A DNA stretch of 54,272 bases from Nitrososphaerales archaeon (GTDB lineage Archaea; Thermoproteota; Nitrososphaeria; Nitrososphaerales; UBA213), in NCBI GenBank assembly GCA_046759465.1, contig JBHICH010000006.1:1-54272 (forward strand), given 5' to 3'. The position numbers and the translations under genes were made by a program. Positions within the stretch are counted from its first letter, which is position 1, and each line of letters opens with the position of its first letter. Below are positions 1,131 to 52,918 of the stretch, in pieces. A model generated the notes under the pieces. It saw only the letters and a program-made list of their open reading frames with translations, made no database searches and was not told the origin of the DNA.

Positions 1131-1460
1131 ATGGTTGACTGTCCTACATGCAAAAAACATGTAAATTATGTGTATCTTAGAATAGATGAGCCCAAATGTG
1201 AAGATGAACATCCGCTTGGCAGATGGGTTATGTGCAAGGGATCGAATGGCAGTCACATATTTTTGAGCAGAGATGCAAATGAGACATGTCCAGTATGTGG
1301 TGATAAAAATAAGAGCGATGCACCAAAAGGAGTCAAAGTAAAGTGTTTGAAGCAATATCCAGAAGAGCAGATATGTCCAACGCCGGAATACACATGGTTG
1401 GTGGACGGACCTCCATGCTATCTTAATCACATAGATATCATATTGGTAAAAAGTGGGTGA
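1131..1460 (+). CDS. Cys/His-rich protein, probably three zinc sites
   Basis: 9 Cys: CPTC..CEDEH; C..H..CPVC; C..C..CYLNH. ATG at 1131 preferred over TTG at 1122. Confidence 0.75.
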   Translation: MVDCPTCKKHVNYVYLRIDEPKCEDEHPLGRWVMCKGSNGSHIFLSRDANETCPVCGDKNKSDAPKGVKVKCLKQYPEEQICPTPEYTWLVDGPPCYLNHIDIILVKSG

Positions 1461-1461
1461 T

Positions 1462-1581
1462 ATGGTACTGCTGACATGTGTTAACTGCATGAAGAAGACA
1501 GAACATGAAGAAACAGAACCGAGTTTCTGGAAGTGTAAAGAGTGCGGGTTAGAGGCATGGAGAACTTCAGAAGAAGAATAA
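1462..1581 (+). CDS. 39-aa zinc-ribbon microprotein (not in ORF track)
   Basis: MVLLTCVNCMKKTEHEETEPSFWKCKECGLEAWRTSEEE*; ATG 1 nt after the upstream stop; GGTGA just upstream. Confidence 0.7.
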   Translation: MVLLTCVNCMKKTEHEETEPSFWKCKECGLEAWRTSEEE

Positions 1582-15143: not shown

Positions 15144-15839
15144 TTACACATCCGTTATGCCTTTGCCGCTGATTTTGAAAATTTCTGAGCGAGGCTCAAG
15201 GGAAGGTTGCAGTAATTTTGCTTTGAATGCACTATTTTCTTTTGAGAGCTCAACTTTAACGTGTGAAAAACTTGATATCGATTTGTCCAAGTGCTCCCTT
15301 TGTTCACCGCCCGTGAACCTTACGGTATTCGTTACTACTATTGCCATATTGCAGTTCAAAGCATCAAGTGCGAGCTCGTGCATAAAACGCATAAATTTCA
15401 GATGTTTCTGAGCGGTCGACGATTCTTTGTAATCATATGAGAATAGCTCACCAATGCTATCAATTACGGTGAGTTTAAGGTTGGCTATAGATGGTATCCG
15501 CTTTATCACAGAAATTTGATCAGCAGTACTGTAAACCCTTGATACATAGATCTTGTCCAACAGTTTATTATCCAAGCCTTCATATTTTGCAATCTGCACA
15601 ATTCTTTCTGGCCTGAATGTGTTCATTGCATCTATAAACAGAACATTTGCATTTAATCCTCTCCTGTTTTTGGGTTTTGCACAATTTACACATAATTGAA
15701 AACAGAGCTGTGTTTTTCCGGAGGCACTTGCACCAAATATATCAGTTAGCATTCCAACTCTTATACCTCCTCCAAGTAGTTTATCCAAGGCACCTGAACT
15801 GGTGTTTATTACAGTCAATGCAAATAATACAAGAATCAT
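15144..15839 (-). CDS. RadA/RadB-like RecA-family ATPase paralogue (no N-terminal HhH domain)
   Basis: LDKLLGGG, GASASGKTQ Walker A, FRPERI, VIDS Walker B; true start may be a few codons downstream. Confidence 0.85.
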   Translation of the reverse strand: MILVLFALTVINTSSGALDKLLGGGIRVGMLTDIFGASASGKTQLCFQLCVNCAKPKNRRGLNANVLFIDAMNTFRPERIVQIAKYEGLDNKLLDKIYVSRVYSTADQISVIKRIPSIANLKLTVIDSIGELFSYDYKESSTAQKHLKFMRFMHELALDALNCNMAIVVTNTVRFTGGEQREHLDKSISSFSHVKVELSKENSAFKAKLLQPSLEPRSEIFKISGKGITDV

Positions 15840-23522: not shown

Positions 23523-24533
23523 TTAAAATAATTTTTTTAATATATTCCACCAAAAATTATCCTCAAACAACACGGGATTTTCACCATCTACATTTACTTT
23601 CTTAGAAGTACGTTTAATGAAATACAGAAATACTTTACCGCAAATTTTGTAAACTTGCGATTCCGGGCTTTTAGAAACCATAGTATCCACAATACAAGGG
23701 CTGACATTTTTTAACAAGAATTTTTTTATCATATCCCTAGAAAAGTATGAAAGTTCTTGATATCTTTCGTGCATGTCTTTTAATATGTATTCTCTTGAAT
23801 TTGATAAAGAATAATGAGCGTGTTCAAGTGATTCCTCAAAAGTTCTAAGATTTCTTTCTGTTTCTGAAATGCGTATCCTCCCAACTTTCATCGCATCTCT
23901 TAATGCGTCCAAATTGTTTTCCGATTCAATCTGATTCACACATCTTCCGACAGTGGATTTCAAATGAGAGTCGCTGCCGCCGACTTTTATTTTATTATGT
24001 TTCTCAGCAAATTCTTCTGCTTTCTGATTAGAATATTCGTCAGGATTGTTGGAATTGAATACTTCGACATGATCTAATAGAACTGCGTTTCCTCGAATAC
24101 CATTTCGAACAGCAAAGGGATGAACAGCTACGGCTATGCCGTTTTTTTCTTTTATTTCCTCTAACGTTTCTTCGATAGACTGGTATGGCTTTATATAACC
24201 ATCAATGAAAAGAGCCGTGACGTGCTTGTTGCCTTCAACAGTTACTTCTTCTCCTCTATAGATTTGTATGCCCTTAAATCTCTCATGGTTATTTTTGTAG
24301 CCTATCAAGTGTCGATATCCTTGGTCTGTGTTATGATCTGTAATTACTAAAGCTTTCAAATTCTTCTTAACCATCGCATAACAAATTTGTTCTGGAGTCG
24401 TTCCGCAATCATAAGGTATACTTTTAGAATTCTGGAAATTTGAGAATACACTATGAACATGAAGTTCTGCTCTTAGTTCATATTGTACTTCTTCATAATT
24501 TCTGCCGAGTTGACTATCACTCTTGGTTGTCAT
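23523..24533 (-). CDS. PHP-domain metal-dependent phosphoesterase
   Basis: ELHVHS, ITDHN, GEEV, AVHPF, GGSDSH motifs. Confidence 0.88.
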   Translation of the reverse strand: MTTKSDSQLGRNYEEVQYELRAELHVHSVFSNFQNSKSIPYDCGTTPEQICYAMVKKNLKALVITDHNTDQGYRHLIGYKNNHERFKGIQIYRGEEVTVEGNKHVTALFIDGYIKPYQSIEETLEEIKEKNGIAVAVHPFAVRNGIRGNAVLLDHVEVFNSNNPDEYSNQKAEEFAEKHNKIKVGGSDSHLKSTVGRCVNQIESENNLDALRDAMKVGRIRISETERNLRTFEESLEHAHYSLSNSREYILKDMHERYQELSYFSRDMIKKFLLKNVSPCIVDTMVSKSPESQVYKICGKVFLYFIKRTSKKVNVDGENPVLFEDNFWWNILKKLF

Positions 24534-24732: not shown

Positions 24733-25125
24733 TCATCTCGCCTTCGGAGGTTTAAATCCATGCTTTCTTAATTCCTTGTAGACATCGCTCTGAGCCCAGC
24801 AGAAACCTATGTGATCGCAATCATCTGTCTTATCTTCCCTACACCACAACATACGCTCTCCTCCGTGAATCTCCACATCTATAGTACTTTTGCTGAAATT
24901 ATCATAAATCAGGAATGTAGGGCCAGAGGAGCCTATCCACTTGAAAGGCGCGTATCTTCTAATGTAATCCTTGTTATCAAGGACCCAGTCTAAAACCTCA
25001 TTGACATACGTGCCAAGAGTGGCGGATTTGGGATACTTGTCCCTCTCGGCATTGAAGCCTTGCTTAAGTTTCGATACAACATCAGGCCGTATAGAGACGT
25101 TCTTCCAACCTTTTTGTAAGGGCAT
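24733..25125 (-). CDS. Putative DNA-binding regulator: RHH-like N-terminus plus C-terminal C-x7-C-x-H Zn-type motif
   Basis: WKNVSIRPDVVSKLK (strand-helix) and WCREDKTDDCDHIGFC; divergent from the PolB2 cassette. Confidence 0.6.
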   Translation of the reverse strand: MPLQKGWKNVSIRPDVVSKLKQGFNAERDKYPKSATLGTYVNEVLDWVLDNKDYIRRYAPFKWIGSSGPTFLIYDNFSKSTIDVEIHGGERMLWCREDKTDDCDHIGFCWAQSDVYKELRKHGFKPPKAR

Positions 25126-25234
25126 ACCTTAGGATTACTAAGGTTATCTAATACTTATTGTTTATGGTATGAATAAGTATCCCTAAAAGTATCTAGGATC
25201 GTTTTAAATATTAGTATACCTTAGGTGACCTTAG
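25126..25234. promoter_or_regulatory. Divergent promoter with four ACCTTAG boxes and inverted AATAAGTAT elements
   Basis: ACCTTAG at 25126, 25218 and 25228, CTAAGGT at 25138; ATACTTATT 25151 / AATAAGTAT 25172; TTTAAATA at 25203. Confidence 0.65.
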
Positions 25235-25235
25235 T

Positions 25236-26000
25236 GTGATAATACTGCCATCGCGGCAAGAATCTCGTATAGATTCACTGAAACGTTACCCAATTAAATT
25301 CTACCACGCTTTTGCATTAATAGGATTAAATTCAGGTATTACGGAACTGGATAAACTGCTTGGTTTCATACCAAAAGGTAAAGTAGTATTTATCAAAGGT
25401 TCGCAATCACGCAAACACATACTCAAATCATTTTGTTTAAGAGCTATATCGCAATATCACAACTACTGCATATTCATTGATGGTGGTAACAGCTTCGATC
25501 CATACATATTATCAAAACTTGCTACTGTCAGCAAACAGAATCCTAAAGAAGTATTGAGTAGAGTGATAATCTCCAGAGCATTCACTTGCCATCAATTAGC
25601 ATCATTGATAGTAAAAGAAACAGGAAAGATTGTTGAGGCATATACAACGAATCTAGTAGTAGTTTCCGATATTCTGTATTTGTTCACAGATCCAGAGTCA
25701 GAGATCGATAAGTATGAAACTGAAATGATTCTTCCAAAGATGTTAAAGTGTCTTACTAATCTAGCAAAGCAAAAAGATAGTATTGTAATAATCACTTCGG
25801 ATAATAGCAGTGCTTGGTTAAGCAGGATGGTAGAATCTTTCTCAGATATTGCTTTAGTGGTGAATAATGATAATGGAATGATCAGTGTAAGCTTGAACAA
25901 GCATCCATTTCTTCCTCATGCTTCTACTACGTTTACCTTGGAGCTTCAACCAGAGAAGAAAATAGCGAAGCTTGAATCGTGGATGATGATAAATGGGTAG
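25236..26000 (+). CDS. RecA/Rad51-like protein with degenerate Walker A (PolB2-associated, ImuA-like)
   Basis: SGITELDKLLG, FIDGGNSFDPY, ISRAFTCHQL; P-loop reads KGSQSRKH. Confidence 0.8.
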   Translation: MIILPSRQESRIDSLKRYPIKFYHAFALIGLNSGITELDKLLGFIPKGKVVFIKGSQSRKHILKSFCLRAISQYHNYCIFIDGGNSFDPYILSKLATVSKQNPKEVLSRVIISRAFTCHQLASLIVKETGKIVEAYTTNLVVVSDILYLFTDPESEIDKYETEMILPKMLKCLTNLAKQKDSIVIITSDNSSAWLSRMVESFSDIALVVNNDNGMISVSLNKHPFLPHASTTFTLELQPEKKIAKLESWMMING

Positions 26001-26268
26001 AACAATTCCGTCGTTCAGAATGCTGATAAATATAGAAATGGCGAGATGGAAAGAATTCCGAAACCAGCTCTCAAGTGAAGATAAAACGATATTTGATGAA
26101 CTCATGAATAACAGCAAGCTTCACTCATCAGCATCCTCTTGTGCATTGAGAACGAATGTGTTTGAAGGTTTGTGTATGGCGATCCTACTAGACCATCAAA
26201 GACGACTAGAAGCTCTTGCTACAGAGTTGGAGCAATTGCATCTAGGTGCCAGCAATGAAAAGATTTGA
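25993..26268 (+). CDS. Small alpha-helical PolB2-associated protein (arCOG07300-like), copy 1
   Basis: MGRTIPSFR...W..FR..L...DK.IFDEL signature; overlaps neighbouring genes. Confidence 0.75.
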   Translation: MGRTIPSFRMLINIEMARWKEFRNQLSSEDKTIFDELMNNSKLHSSASSCALRTNVFEGLCMAILLDHQRRLEALATELEQLHLGASNEKI

Positions 26269-26494
26269 TGAAGAAATTCAGGGATGGCAAGGTTTTCTTA
26301 ATGCACTGCGAGCAGATGACAGAGTTGTCTTCCGAAGGATGCTAATTGATTTACAAAAATACGCAGAAGTAATAGGTCAGCAAGAAAATCCTACAGAAAC
26401 ACTAGTCGTTGCTATACTGTTGCAACAGTACAAAATCATAAAATGGCTTGAAACAGAGATGCAAAAACTGAAGCTCAAATTAAAGGAGAGTTAA
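26255..26494 (+). CDS. Small alpha-helical PolB2-associated protein, copy 2 (truncated paralogue)
   Basis: EIQGWQGFLNALRADDRVVF...AILLQQ aligns with copy 1; AGGTG upstream of ATG 26255. Confidence 0.7.
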   Translation: MKRFDEEIQGWQGFLNALRADDRVVFRRMLIDLQKYAEVIGQQENPTETLVVAILLQQYKIIKWLETEMQKLKLKLKES

Positions 26495-26496
26495 GA

Positions 26497-28761
26497 TTGG
26501 TTGAAGGCTGGATACTAGACCTCCATCCTAATCCGAAGCAAGGTGGAGAGATGATAGTATGGTTAAAGCAAAGAAACGGACAAGCAACAAGTCTGATCGA
26601 TAAATGGAGTCCATCGATCTATGTTTCTGCAGATAGCAAGGAAGATTTTGACAGTGTGCTAAGAAATCCAGAAGTTAGGTTGCTTATTTCTGATCATGGG
26701 TTTGAATATAAAATTGCTGAAATTACTGAGAAGGAACCAAAAAATGTTCTACGATTAACACCAAAGCATCCCAGAGATATGATTAAACTTGCAAAATCGA
26801 TTTTTAATTCCAGTCCATACGGAAGATACGAGATCTACAATGCTGACATAGACCCTGCACAGATCTACATGTATGAACATGACCTATTTCCATTAGCATA
26901 TGTCAAAGCAGATGTTTGTAATGATAGCATTCTATGGAAGATGCTGGATTCGATAGAAAGCACCGATTATGAGTTACCCTCCTTCACCAAGTTGCATCTT
27001 AGGGTAAAGCATAACAAGCGAAATTTGCTGGTAAGCATCATAGATCCCATACAATCCATTGAGATGGTATCAGACAATGGGAGGTTTGTAATCGATGGTA
27101 GTGAGGAGCGCATTTTGTTGAGCGCGGTTCAAGAAGTCCAGAGGCTTGATCCCGATATAGTATTCACGAATGACGGTGACGCGTTTCTTGTTCCAAGTTT
27201 GTTGGAGAGAGCTAGAGTGAAGGGTCTGTCTGAAAAGATGGCCTTTGGACGAGATGGTCAAGCACTAGCATTACCATGGCGAAGAGGCTCGATCTACTTT
27301 TCATATGGCAAGGTGATCTACAAACCAAGGCCAGCTAGATTCCTTGGCAGGATTCACATCGATACTGCGAACGCATTCGTTTATGCTGAATGCGGTCTAG
27401 AAGGAGTCATAGAAGTTGCTAGAACTTGTAGAGTTCCTTTAGATACTACAGCAAGAGCATCCATCGGAAGAATCATGACAAGTATAGAATTTTACTATGC
27501 ATACAGGGATGGCATCCTTATTCCCTGGAAGCCAACTCTAGCAGAACGTTTCAAGAATGGATGGGACTTGATGGTTGGAGATAGAGGAGGATTCATCTTC
27601 GAACCAAAGGTTGGAGTGCATGATAACGTAGGCGGGATCGATTTCTCCTCCCTCTATCCCACACTGATGTTTAAGAACAATATTAGTGCGGAAACAATTG
27701 GTTGTGATTGCTGTCCAGACTCCAGTATAAGAGTTCCAGAACTTGATTATAATATTTGTGAAAAGAGAGTTGGAATAATTTCAAAGGCTCTTGATTTACT
27801 GCTGCAGAAAAGAGCAAGATATAAAGAGCTTAAGAAATCTGTGCAAGATAAGGATACAAGGATAGTATATGATCGCAGACAAAATGCATTGAAGTGGGTT
27901 CTTGTCTCATGCTTTGGTTATCTTGGATTTAGGAATGCAAAGTTTGGGAGAATAGATGCCCATATGACAGTTTGTGCATTTGCTAGAAAGGCATTGTTTG
28001 ATGCTGTGAAGATTGCCGAGAATAATGCATATGAGATTATACATGGCATCGTTGATTCATTATGGTTAAAGAAGCGAAATGCGGAAGAGGAAGATTACAT
28101 CGAACTTTGTTCGCTAATCAAGGAAGCGACTGAATTACCCATATCATTCGAAGGGGTATACAAATGGATAGCATTTCTGCCATCGAAGATGTATGATGGA
28201 CTTCCTGTTATCAACAGATACTTTGGCGTATTCAAGAATGGAGAGATTAAGACACGTGGAATAGAAGCCAGAAAGCATGACACACCAGAATTTATCAGAA
28301 GATGCCAGCTGGAGATGTTAAAGATATTGGCTAAGTACCCTAATTCTGATCAGGTTAAGGAGCATCTTATGGAGGCTGTAAAGGTTCTTGCAAAGTATCT
28401 TAAGCTGCTTGAAGATAGACAAGTGTCTATTGAAGATCTCGTCATCAATAAACGCCTTAGCAAAAGTGCATCAGATTACAAGAAAGATATTCTTCAAGCA
28501 ATAGTTTCTAAACAGCTTGCTAACGATGGGAGAGAGCTTGTTGCTGGTCAAGTAATAAGTTACATAATAACTGACTTCTATAACAAGAATCCAGAGAAGA
28601 GGGCACTTCATATTGACTTGCTGAGGGACAACTCGGAATATGATGTAAGAAAATATTCAAAAATGCTAATTGATTCTGCTAACACAATTCTAACTCCGTT
28701 TGGCTTAGTAGATCCTCTGCAATCCAAACTTTACCCACACAAAAGCAGTTGGAGAAGATAA
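26497..28761 (+). CDS. polB2: Family B DNA polymerase, PolB2 (Dpo2-like) group
   Basis: Motif A IDFSSLYP, motif B QNALKWVLVSCFGYLG, motif C HGIVDSLW instead of YGDTDS, KTRGIEARK; eroded exonuclease motifs. Confidence 0.9.
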   Translation: MVEGWILDLHPNPKQGGEMIVWLKQRNGQATSLIDKWSPSIYVSADSKEDFDSVLRNPEVRLLISDHGFEYKIAEITEKEPKNVLRLTPKHPRDMIKLAKSIFNSSPYGRYEIYNADIDPAQIYMYEHDLFPLAYVKADVCNDSILWKMLDSIESTDYELPSFTKLHLRVKHNKRNLLVSIIDPIQSIEMVSDNGRFVIDGSEERILLSAVQEVQRLDPDIVFTNDGDAFLVPSLLERARVKGLSEKMAFGRDGQALALPWRRGSIYFSYGKVIYKPRPARFLGRIHIDTANAFVYAECGLEGVIEVARTCRVPLDTTARASIGRIMTSIEFYYAYRDGILIPWKPTLAERFKNGWDLMVGDRGGFIFEPKVGVHDNVGGIDFSSLYPTLMFKNNISAETIGCDCCPDSSIRVPELDYNICEKRVGIISKALDLLLQKRARYKELKKSVQDKDTRIVYDRRQNALKWVLVSCFGYLGFRNAKFGRIDAHMTVCAFARKALFDAVKIAENNAYEIIHGIVDSLWLKKRNAEEEDYIELCSLIKEATELPISFEGVYKWIAFLPSKMYDGLPVINRYFGVFKNGEIKTRGIEARKHDTPEFIRRCQLEMLKILAKYPNSDQVKEHLMEAVKVLAKYLKLLEDRQVSIEDLVINKRLSKSASDYKKDILQAIVSKQLANDGRELVAGQVISYIITDFYNKNPEKRALHIDLLRDNSEYDVRKYSKMLIDSANTILTPFGLVDPLQSKLYPHKSSWRR

Positions 28762-51823: not shown

Positions 51824-52918
51824 TTATGATCTAGGTGTTACATCTCCTTTTGCCATCAAATTACCAACACTATCTAGTGCTGTCCATTCATAAGATGAAG
51901 TTCGATTATCAACTATCATTATCATTATCAATGATTTGCCAGGTTTGATTGGTTTATCTTCTGTCTGAACGATTACTGTGCTTTGGTCTATTCTGTCCCT
52001 GTCCCACCCTCTAGCCTTTACAAACCTGATCTTTCCATCATCCATCTTCATCTGGATGCCGAATATCCCTTCATCTCCATTATTCTTGACAGCAACCAAC
52101 GATACTTTCTTCTTATGCTTCATGGCTACCGAAATATCAGCCTCTTTCTGCTCTTCTAATTGAACTTCAGGTTTGGAGAGATCACTTTCCTTATCAAGTT
52201 TCAAATGCACCTTACCCCACTCAATTGGAGATGGCAAGACCTCTTTTACAATTAATTTGAACTGTTTGCCTCCAGCATTTGTGGGCCATTCGATAAATTT
52301 GTTGTTAAAAGCATCATTAACATAAATATAGAATCCCATCATCTCATCAAGGCCATAAGTGGCTATTGGAATTCTAAACTCATAATTCACATGGTTGTTA
52401 GTACTGTCATATGGATCGTTCATATGTGAATATGCGATGGCAGCATCGAACTTGTTGTCATACGGATCCCACGTTTCAGCCTCTTGCAAAACAGTCCATC
52501 CCATGCCATTACCCTGCAGGATACCATCTATGAAGCCACTTCTTGTGACCCTGTAGAAACAGTAATCATCTGCTAGAGGAGCCTTACCTCCATTACTTTT
52601 TGTATCAAAACAAGCTACTGCGAAATCGCCACTTTTTTCAAGACCTTGGTCTGAAATGAAGTCGAACAAGATATATACAAATACTCCATCATGTTTGGTC
52701 CTAAGGTATGCTGTCAATTCTTTGTCCTTAATCTTCGTCTCGCTAGCATCTATCCATTCTGTCTTACTACTCCACCGACCATCGATTTCCAGTAGCTTTT
52801 CACCTTTTGGTATGATGGATTGAGGTTCTTGCTCAAGCTGCATTGATGGTTTTTCAACAGTTAGCATTAAGAACATAACAACAAAAAAGATTGAAGGTAT
52901 GTACCTGTTACGTAGCAT
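51824..52918 (-). CDS. Secreted protein with DOMON/CBM9-like domain
   Basis: N-terminal hydrophobic segment; EIDGRW....EW.DA, ACFDT..NGG, NYEFRIP. Confidence 0.65.
   Translation of the reverse strand: MLRNRYIPSIFFVVMFLMLTVEKPSMQLEQEPQSIIPKGEKLLEIDGRWSSKTEWIDASETKIKDKELTAYLRTKHDGVFVYILFDFISDQGLEKSGDFAVACFDTKSNGGKAPLADDYCFYRVTRSGFIDGILQGNGMGWTVLQEAETWDPYDNKFDAAIAYSHMNDPYDSTNNHVNYEFRIPIATYGLDEMMGFYIYVNDAFNNKFIEWPTNAGGKQFKLIVKEVLPSPIEWGKVHLKLDKESDLSKPEVQLEEQKEADISVAMKHKKKVSLVAVKNNGDEGIFGIQMKMDDGKIRFVKARGWDRDRIDQSTVIVQTEDKPIKPGKSLIMIMIVDNRTSSYEWTALDSVGNLMAKGDVTPRS

Follow-up and report, generated by a model that had tools for sequence, protein, structure and literature searches.

A putative ribbon-helix-helix repressor and paired candidate operators in the divergent promoter region of an archaeal iRadA-PPB2-PolB2 cassette

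The stretch of DNA analyzed here, a 54,272-nucleotide (nt) window from a Nitrososphaerales archaeon (contig JBHICH010000006.1, genome G000 in our set), carries the gene of a small regulator, which we call REG (130 amino acids [aa], 24733..25125, minus strand), next to a divergently oriented cassette of four plus-strand genes. The cassette opens with iRadA, a RadA/Rad51-like protein of 254 aa (25236..26000), continues with two PPB2-like small helical proteins, copy a of 91 aa (25993..26268) and copy b of 82 aa (26246..26494), and ends with a PolB2-type family B DNA polymerase of 754 aa (26497..28761). The 110-bp spacer between the two units (25126-25235) contains two candidate operators, O1 (25126..25144) and O2 (25218..25234, plus strand). 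From the sequence evidence set out below, we think it probable that REG is an autoregulated local repressor, acting through the paired boxes of these operators on its own gene and on the iRadA-PPB2-PPB2-PolB2 operon.

The spacer holds four exact copies of ACCTTAG, at 25126-25132 (+), 25138-25144 (-), 25218-25224 (+), and 25228-25234 (+), and the window has just one further copy, at 52701. The clustering of this motif is beyond chance, though its total count in the window is not (5 observed versus 5.48 +/- 2.04 expected). No other 7-mer in the window reaches four non-overlapping copies within any 110-bp span, and any such 7-mer appeared in 3 of 100 dinucleotide-preserving shuffles. The inverted pair that makes up O1 (ACCTTAG-GATTA-CTAAGGT) abuts the regulator's ATG (25123-25125, minus strand). 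The direct pair that makes up O2 (ACCTTAG-GTG-ACCTTAG) lies between TTTAAATA at 25203-25210 and the GTG at 25236, ending one base 5' of that codon. The four boxes and the placement of both pairs relative to the ATG, TTTAAATA, and the cassette start had been reported in a first-pass annotation of the window, and the sequence bears them out. That annotation also distinguished an inverted from a direct pair; both pairs are present, but they do not stand as two architectures. In a core frame, O1 reads CCTTAGG (25127-25133), ATT, aCTAAGG (25137-25143), with centers 10 bp apart, and O2 reads CCTTAGG (25219-25225), TGA, CCTTAGt (25229-25235), with a 10-bp period. Read this way, both sites share one architecture of two palindromic CCTWAGG cores about one helical turn apart.

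Each operator lies next to a promoter-like element. On the REG side, a TATA-like AT-rich stretch (ATAAGTATTAGATAA, 25144..25159, minus strand), identical in the related genome G001, would place the promoter at about -19 to -34 from the REG ATG. On the cassette side, the block GGATC-N-T-N-TTAAATATTAG (25197..25214, plus strand) is, judging from its position, the likely TATA box of the cassette promoter and probably includes the B recognition element (BRE) too. O2 begins 8 bp past this TATA box.

The spacer was compared in a three-way alignment of this window, G001 (from the same family as G000, with a REG 83-84% identical), and metagenome contig L061 (REG 70% identical). A search for related loci gave one match among metagenome contigs and no relative among genome contigs. 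In G001, the four boxes are kept exactly, despite a spacer shorter by 21 nt and a linker change within O1. L061 carries two copies of CCTAAGG just before the REG ATG and two copies of CCTTAGG just after the cassette TATA box, each pair with an 11-bp period. Invariant across all three loci are the start codon with box 1, the CTWAGG of box 2, the GGATC-N-T-N-TTAAATATTAG block, and boxes 3 and 4, while the middle of the spacer (25160..25195), where the 21-nt deletion of G001 falls, is variable. Partial boxes at 25148 and 25208 had been thought to continue the phasing of the array. As separate sites they are not supported: the first is present in G001 and lost in L061, and the second, although invariant in all three loci, lies inside the conserved TATA block and is thus indistinguishable from it.

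We found that a search of the 1,578,077-bp assembly with CCTWAGGNNNNCTWAG gave two exact matches, both within this spacer. Allowing up to one mismatch gave 12 matches, five in the spacer and seven elsewhere, and a reversed control pattern gave 28. No further regulon members were seen in G000, as the seven matches off the spacer are fewer than the 28 of the control. Since the genome has this operator nowhere but in the spacer, the regulator can be called dedicated in this organism.

REG itself matched no Pfam family at E <= 0.1 and gave no meaningful NCBIfam match. An exhaustive sequence search with REG returned 105 cluster representatives at E <= 0.001, 27 of them at <= 1e-10. The protein-atlas clusters of the family are labeled 'hypothetical protein' and come mostly from Nitrososphaerota, and a look-alike atlas cluster carries RHH_1 on 14% of its members. 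When 60 family members were scanned against Pfam, matches were sub-threshold only, with RHH_5 in one member (E 0.026) and VAPB_antitox in three (best 0.057). An AlphaFold (AF2) model built from a 60-row alignment, with a predicted local distance difference test (pLDDT) value of 87.0, has an extended segment at residues 5-13 and helices at 14-26 and 37-58. Comparison of this model with 48,161 solved chains by VIA-align placed ribbon-helix-helix (RHH) proteins in most of the best-scoring rows, over REG residues 3-59. Examples are TraM (3on0_A; Z 6.2, root-mean-square deviation [rmsd] 2.4, 53 residues aligned) and NikR (1q5v_A; Z 5.5, rmsd 1.7, 45 aligned), and also the PutA RHH domain (2rbf_A, Z 5.0), omega (2bnw_A, Z 4.2), and Arc (1arq, Z 3.9). 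A predicted REG homodimer scored 0.47 (runs of 0.47, 0.44, and 0.48) versus 0.00 for the best control; the mark set for this score is reached by 20 of 30 proteins solved as one-chain pairs and by 1 of 23 solved as single chains. Contacts agree to at least 60% between the dimer runs, and the partner has a pLDDT of at least 73. The predicted interface is confined to residues 3-55, with residues 7-12 pairing with 9-12 of the other copy in the manner of an RHH ribbon, and the C-domains are not in contact. Together, the fold matches and the predicted ribbon dimer support in silico that the N-domain (residues ~3-59) is a ribbon-helix-helix of the MetJ/Arc/CopG superfamily, a likeness that the first-pass annotation had suggested.

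The C-domain (residues ~60-130) was modeled with a pLDDT of 86.6 as four strands and two helices. Among solved folds, its best VIA-align match had a Z of 4.0 (Aha1, rmsd 5.2) with no family standing out, Foldseek gave none at E <= 0.001, and these searches pointed to no peptidase, no sensor, and no known ligand-binding fold. The C-x7-C-x-H motif already pointed out in this protein (C95, C103, H105) is kept without exception in all 60 aligned family members. D75 reaches at least 90% conservation in the same set and is invariant in a second one (23/23), and C109 is not conserved. The resulting Cys-Cys-His(-Asp) cluster may bind zinc in a structural role, or may serve to sense a metal or redox signal. 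The SWIM zinc finger, with its motif C-x-C-xn-C-x-H, was rejected as an identity for this domain: C95, C103, and H105 are the only invariant residues, there is no CxC pair upstream of the CxH, and SWIM is not among the 25 listed of the 51 Pfam families matched by the 60 members.

On the other side of the spacer, iRadA matches Pfam Rad51 (E 3.7e-10) over residues 76-189 only. Its Walker A position reads KGSQSRKH, without GKT/S, and it thus appears to be a RadA homolog with an inactivated ATPase site. The two PPB2-like genes are assigned by operon position, by conservation, and by their relation to each other: the copies are paralogous (30% identity, E 3e-10), so that the small protein is duplicated in this cassette. 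The polymerase matches Pfam DNA_pol_B (E 7.6e-37), and its motif C is GIVDS in place of the GDTDS of solved PolBs, as aligned to 5mdn_A; such a replacement of the first Asp of DxD is typical of PolB2 (PMC11791011). The cassette genes lie on the same strand, overlap or are at most 2 nt apart, and occur in the same order in 17 loci of relatives. The cassette is thus the iRadA-PPB2-PolB2 mutasome operon described by Makarova et al. 2014 (PMC4104785) and Timinskas et al. 2025 (PMC11791011). Such operons are damage-induced in Sulfolobales (PMC11791011; PMC4104785), and orc1/cdc6, lexA, SRAP, and DUF72 genes are enriched among their neighbors (PMC11791011).

These features suggest a simple mechanism. 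Each symmetric RHH dimer would read one 7-bp palindromic CCTWAGG box, and two dimers side by side would fill each operator, with the boxes one helical turn apart. O1 would sit between the TATA-like element and the ATG of REG, and O2 between the cassette TATA box and the GTG of iRadA. In leaderless-type archaeal promoters, the TATA-to-start region is where RNA polymerase is recruited, and occupancy of the operators would block that recruitment at both promoters. Because the operators lie between TATA box and start codon, REG would be expected to repress both itself and the mutasome operon. The operon would stay off until REG leaves the DNA, released by a signal that may act through the C-domain. 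From these sequence features we infer all three steps, namely the binding of REG to the boxes, its repressive effect, and its signal-driven release.

The same positions bear on a different possibility, that REG is an activator or dual regulator, repressing itself at O1 and helping to bring in the transcription machinery at O2. The role of an archaeal regulator can change with where its site lies, and the start of O2 8 bp after the TATA box would suit such recruitment. However, both operators lie downstream of TATA and reach the start codon, O1 and O2 have the same architecture, and a position between TATA and start is the classical one for blocking RNA polymerase recruitment, as with MDR1, LrpA, and Phr. 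We consider activation at O2 very improbable.

Several observations count against local repression by REG. Curated RHH sequence models fail to match REG, there being no Pfam RHH match and RHH_5 being touched by just one of the 60 members. The RHH Z-scores (4-6) are modest and in a range that may reflect a common arrangement, and a Foldseek search of PDB with the whole REG model gave no match at E <= 0.001. The passing dimer score may reflect likeness to solved RHH dimers and is not proof. The iRadA start (GTG 25236) and both transcription starts are predicted positions. Moreover, no family member was seen in the searched stretch of 92 of 99 cassettes, the family occurs in many more genomes than the cassette (211 versus 93 of 300), and the idea that PolB2-linked members form one orthologous clade was rejected by the tree described below.

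A search with the single REG protein found the family in 30 of 60 relatives. A profile search extended it to 211 of 300 genomes of the order, a tally that includes three unpublished genomes and takes in all 74 of family f12 and all 11 of f8. iRadA (E <= 1e-12) is present in 93 of the 300 and in only one of the 74 genomes of f12. We surveyed linkage at 98 iRadA loci from these 93 genomes, with 1,000 nt or more of upstream sequence for 85 of the loci. Of the 98, 6 have a family member no more than 3.5 kb upstream of iRadA, which makes 7 of 99 once this window is counted. The divergent arrangement is found in G000, G001, G045, and G213. In G034 and G217, from two different families, REG comes first in a REG-radA-iRadA-PPB2-PolB2 string, its stop codon touching or overlapping the radA start, and in G084 REG is directly followed by iRadA. 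With REG so tightly coupled to radA in two lineages, a link to RadA seems possible.

In a tree of 48 rows, the linked members require at least four separate placements, six by parsimony, and 42 of 500 label shuffles were equally clustered. The linked members are thus not a single clade, and the family is not a PolB2 regulator by nature. The association of REG with the cassette recurs in different paralog lineages and in a minority of cassettes, and the genomes concerned are kin. The first-pass annotation had proposed a regulator dedicated to PolB2 and had suggested looking for the two together elsewhere. The first proposal survives for this genome, where the operator occurs in this spacer alone, but not for the family as a whole, which is not PolB2-specific; linkage does recur, at the six other loci just described. 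G000 has a single REG-family member in its assembly. Its canonical radA (contig C55:6-878) starts at a contig edge, at model position 23, and its upstream region is unassembled; any regulator upstream of radA, as in G034 and G217, would fall outside the assembly.

Paralogs of REG generally have short boxes in pairs, placed after a TATA-like element and before the ATG of the paralog itself. Where the predicted ribbon differs, the box differs: WKNVSIR goes with CCTWAGG, FKSITVS with TACSKTA-N3-TACGGTA, YMSLTVA with TTCCGTA-TGC-TACGGAA, and FSVITIT with CTGTAA pairs. In the closest non-linked paralog (L008, G003:C20:34393-34764; 41% identical), ATTAGGT-AAC-ATTAGGT precedes the ATG, with ACCTTAGGT some 55 nt upstream of these boxes; they are related to those of this window, yet the PolB2 cassette of G003 is 570 kb away. 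G003 also has a degenerate second iRadA copy (L191, G003:C17:17212-17230) with in-frame stops, and a TACSKTA-type box pair still lies about 70 nt upstream of it.

This pairing of ribbon and box is relevant to an alternative in which a factor other than REG binds the boxes, or in which they serve as core promoter or initiator elements, and REG is an unrelated RHH protein such as an antitoxin or partition-type protein. Many of its fold matches are indeed RHH antitoxins (ParD, TacA, MazE). On the other hand, REG has no toxin-like partner, and the next gene encodes a PHP-domain protein 200 nt away that is not kept in G001. The box pair occurs nowhere else in the genome, which argues against general promoter elements; the boxes change together with the ribbon of each paralog; and G000 offers no second family member. 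An unrelated role for REG is, in our judgment, very improbable.

The paralog with FKSITVS, which we call the core paralog, begins with MPK[SA]GFKSITVSE and is single-copy in f12. Its promoter carries TACYKTA-N3-TACGGTA about 30 nt before the start in 16 of 19 f12 genomes checked, and TACSGTA is, like CCTWAGG, a 7-bp palindrome. Going by the shared motif, the core paralog would bind TACSKTA-type sites. Canonical radA has the same element in the interval from TATA box to ATG, as an exact match in G018 and one mismatch off in G032, and 22 of 30 f12 genomes have at least two TACSKTAW boxes in the 70 nt before the radA start. In these f12 radA promoters (L190/G018, L204/G032, L216-L245), we also noted a strongly conserved CTTATAAAGTACTnGTACCGTACCwTACGGT-ATG, a TATA box followed by a palindromic operator that runs into the start codon. 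The presence of the core paralog's operator type at radA promoters supports a link to DNA repair. In f12, this operator type is also found ahead of a TrpE/PabB-like gene (two genera) and a gene for a winged-helix-like protein of 114-115 aa (two genera), both named from sequence reading only (L205 in G018, L189 and L211 in G032, L185 in G042), and the set is therefore not purely one of DNA repair.

Operators of this type also occur at some PolB2 cassettes. In f1 genomes with no adjacent regulator (G002, G003, G004), the PolB2 promoter has TACSGTA-N3-TACCTTA overlapping the TATA box. G002 carries an identical 21-nt element, TACCGTAATATACCTTAAATA, at the PolB2 promoter and before a DnaQ-like exonuclease gene, and these are its only two copies in the genome. 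The frame of this DnaQ-like 3'-5' exonuclease (L075, G002:C9 ~1380-1530, minus strand) was recognized by eye from FDIETTGLDP... and is interrupted by a stop codon. Across the survey, a TACSKTA-type operator was found at 5 of 98 iRadA loci versus none in the reversed control, and one of the five is the ACCTTAG pair of G001 in another frame. With only 5 of 98 loci, this operator type was rejected as a general feature of PolB2 cassettes.

Adding a specific signal to local repression by REG, our best explanation of the locus, gives an SOS-like switch: DNA damage, an oxidant or metal signal at the Cys-Cys-His(-Asp) site, or contact with a RadA filament would release REG and thereby induce the mutasome. 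This extension is consistent with the damage induction of PolB2 operons in Sulfolobales and with the bacterial versions that stand beside lexA (PMC11791011; PMC4104785). It is also in keeping with the family members that head a string of canonical radA and PolB2 genes in G034 and G217, with the core paralog's operator type in its own promoter and in radA promoters of f12, and with the invariance of C95, C103, H105, and, in the second set, D75. Against it, the Cys/His site could be purely structural, the C-domain has no detected peptidase, sensor, or known ligand-binding fold, and the operator type also precedes non-repair genes in f12. We hold the SOS-like switch as a tentative idea, possible rather than likely. 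It can also be widened to the family, as an SOS-like DNA-damage repressor system of ammonia-oxidizing and related Nitrososphaerales. Here the core paralog would control radA and itself and, in some genomes, the PolB2 mutasome and the DnaQ-like exonuclease; diverged paralogs such as REG would control the PolB2 operon alone; and the Cys/His domain or contact with RadA filaments would bring about release once damage occurs. This wider scheme seems to us doubtful on present evidence.

The predicted features of REG recall several known systems. The RHH repressors omega, Arc, CopG, and MetJ act on operators of repeated short boxes, which they occupy as dimers of dimers, and omega reads 7-bp heptads in direct or inverted orientation. 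REG would share with these repressors (omega being that of pSM19035) the strand-helix-helix N-fold and dimerization through the ribbon, 7-bp boxes that come in pairs, in either orientation, with a spacing of about one helical turn, and an operator beside the gene of the regulator itself, which implies autoregulation. It differs from them in having no Pfam RHH match, in its 70-residue C-domain with invariant Cys-Cys-His, and in its archaeal host with TATA/TFB promoters. NikR, like REG, has an RHH domain followed by a domain with conserved Cys/His, and NikR chains match the REG N-domain (1q5v_A, over residues 3-55 only; 2bj1_A and 2ca9_A, Z 4.1-4.2). However, NikR's second domain is an ACT-like metal-binding tetramerization domain, and no NikR chain is among the best 50 C-domain matches listed.

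The lexA-imuA-imuB-dnaE2 genes form a comparable SOS mutagenesis cassette. At bacterial PolB2 operons that stand beside lexA, as with REG, the regulator adjoins or heads an operon of a RecA/RadA-like protein and an error-prone polymerase (PMC4104785; PMC11791011). LexA cassettes and the REG locus both have operators, here candidate ones, at the regulator's own promoter and at the cassette promoter. Unlike LexA, which joins a winged-helix DNA-binding domain to a self-cleaving Ser-Lys peptidase domain, REG shows no S24 peptidase or winged-helix family in Pfam and NCBIfam scans, and self-cleavage is not evident. LexA was accordingly rejected as an identity for REG, which matches no such family and has a predicted RHH fold.

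Among archaeal systems, the aCcr1-3 proteins of Sulfolobales are small and are not known to us to have a C-terminal Cys/His domain. Like the putative repressor REG, they are archaeal RHH repressors, but they regulate the cell cycle (PMC13199686). The damage response of Sulfolobales that depends on Orc1-2 and TFB3 controls the same kind of operon, with dpo2/PolB2, an inactive RadA, and a small protein (PMC11791011). Unlike the predicted RHH protein REG, Orc1-2 is an AAA+ activator of the Orc1/Cdc6 type, and no orc1/cdc6 gene is adjacent to this cassette. Full-text literature searches returned no description of the REG family or of its operators, nor did the available parts of the two PolB2 papers (PMC4104785, PMC11791011), and no RHH regulator appears in the main text of PMC11791011.

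Other genes around the cassettes were also noted. The PHP-domain protein 200 nt downstream of REG (336 aa, 23523-24533, minus strand) matches PHP_C (E 1.2e-12) and a CehA/McbA-type metallohydrolase (E 1.2e-15) and has a weak likeness to the N-terminus of TrlF/Ppl-type ATPases; G001 has a different gene at this place, so the linkage is not conserved. A second RadA-family paralog (15318-15812, minus strand), about 10 kb from the cassette, matches TIGR02236 (E 3.5e-37, below the cut-off) in a 235-aa frame. In G034, G084, and G217, iRadA is about 325-338 aa long (L082 3207-4223, L084 482-1489, L146 3192-4169), with an N-terminal extension bearing two Cys pairs, zinc-ribbon-like, that the 254-aa iRadA of this window does not have. 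DUF72-like genes, recognized by eye from GTSGW... N-termini, flank the PolB2 cassettes in L032, L039, L082, and L084, in agreement with PMC11791011.

In our view, the reading of REG as a local repressor is well supported, and the SOS-like reading would be directly testable. The PolB2 mutasome is the archaeal counterpart of the bacterial SOS mutagenesis polymerases, and its silencing is known only for Sulfolobales, through Orc1-2. At this locus, the DNA shows a control module of another and very simple kind, in which one small putative regulator would act through two like operators at two promoters. With the family found in 211 of 300 genomes and the operator type of its core member at radA promoters, REG and its relatives may offer an entry point to the DNA-damage response of Nitrososphaerales.

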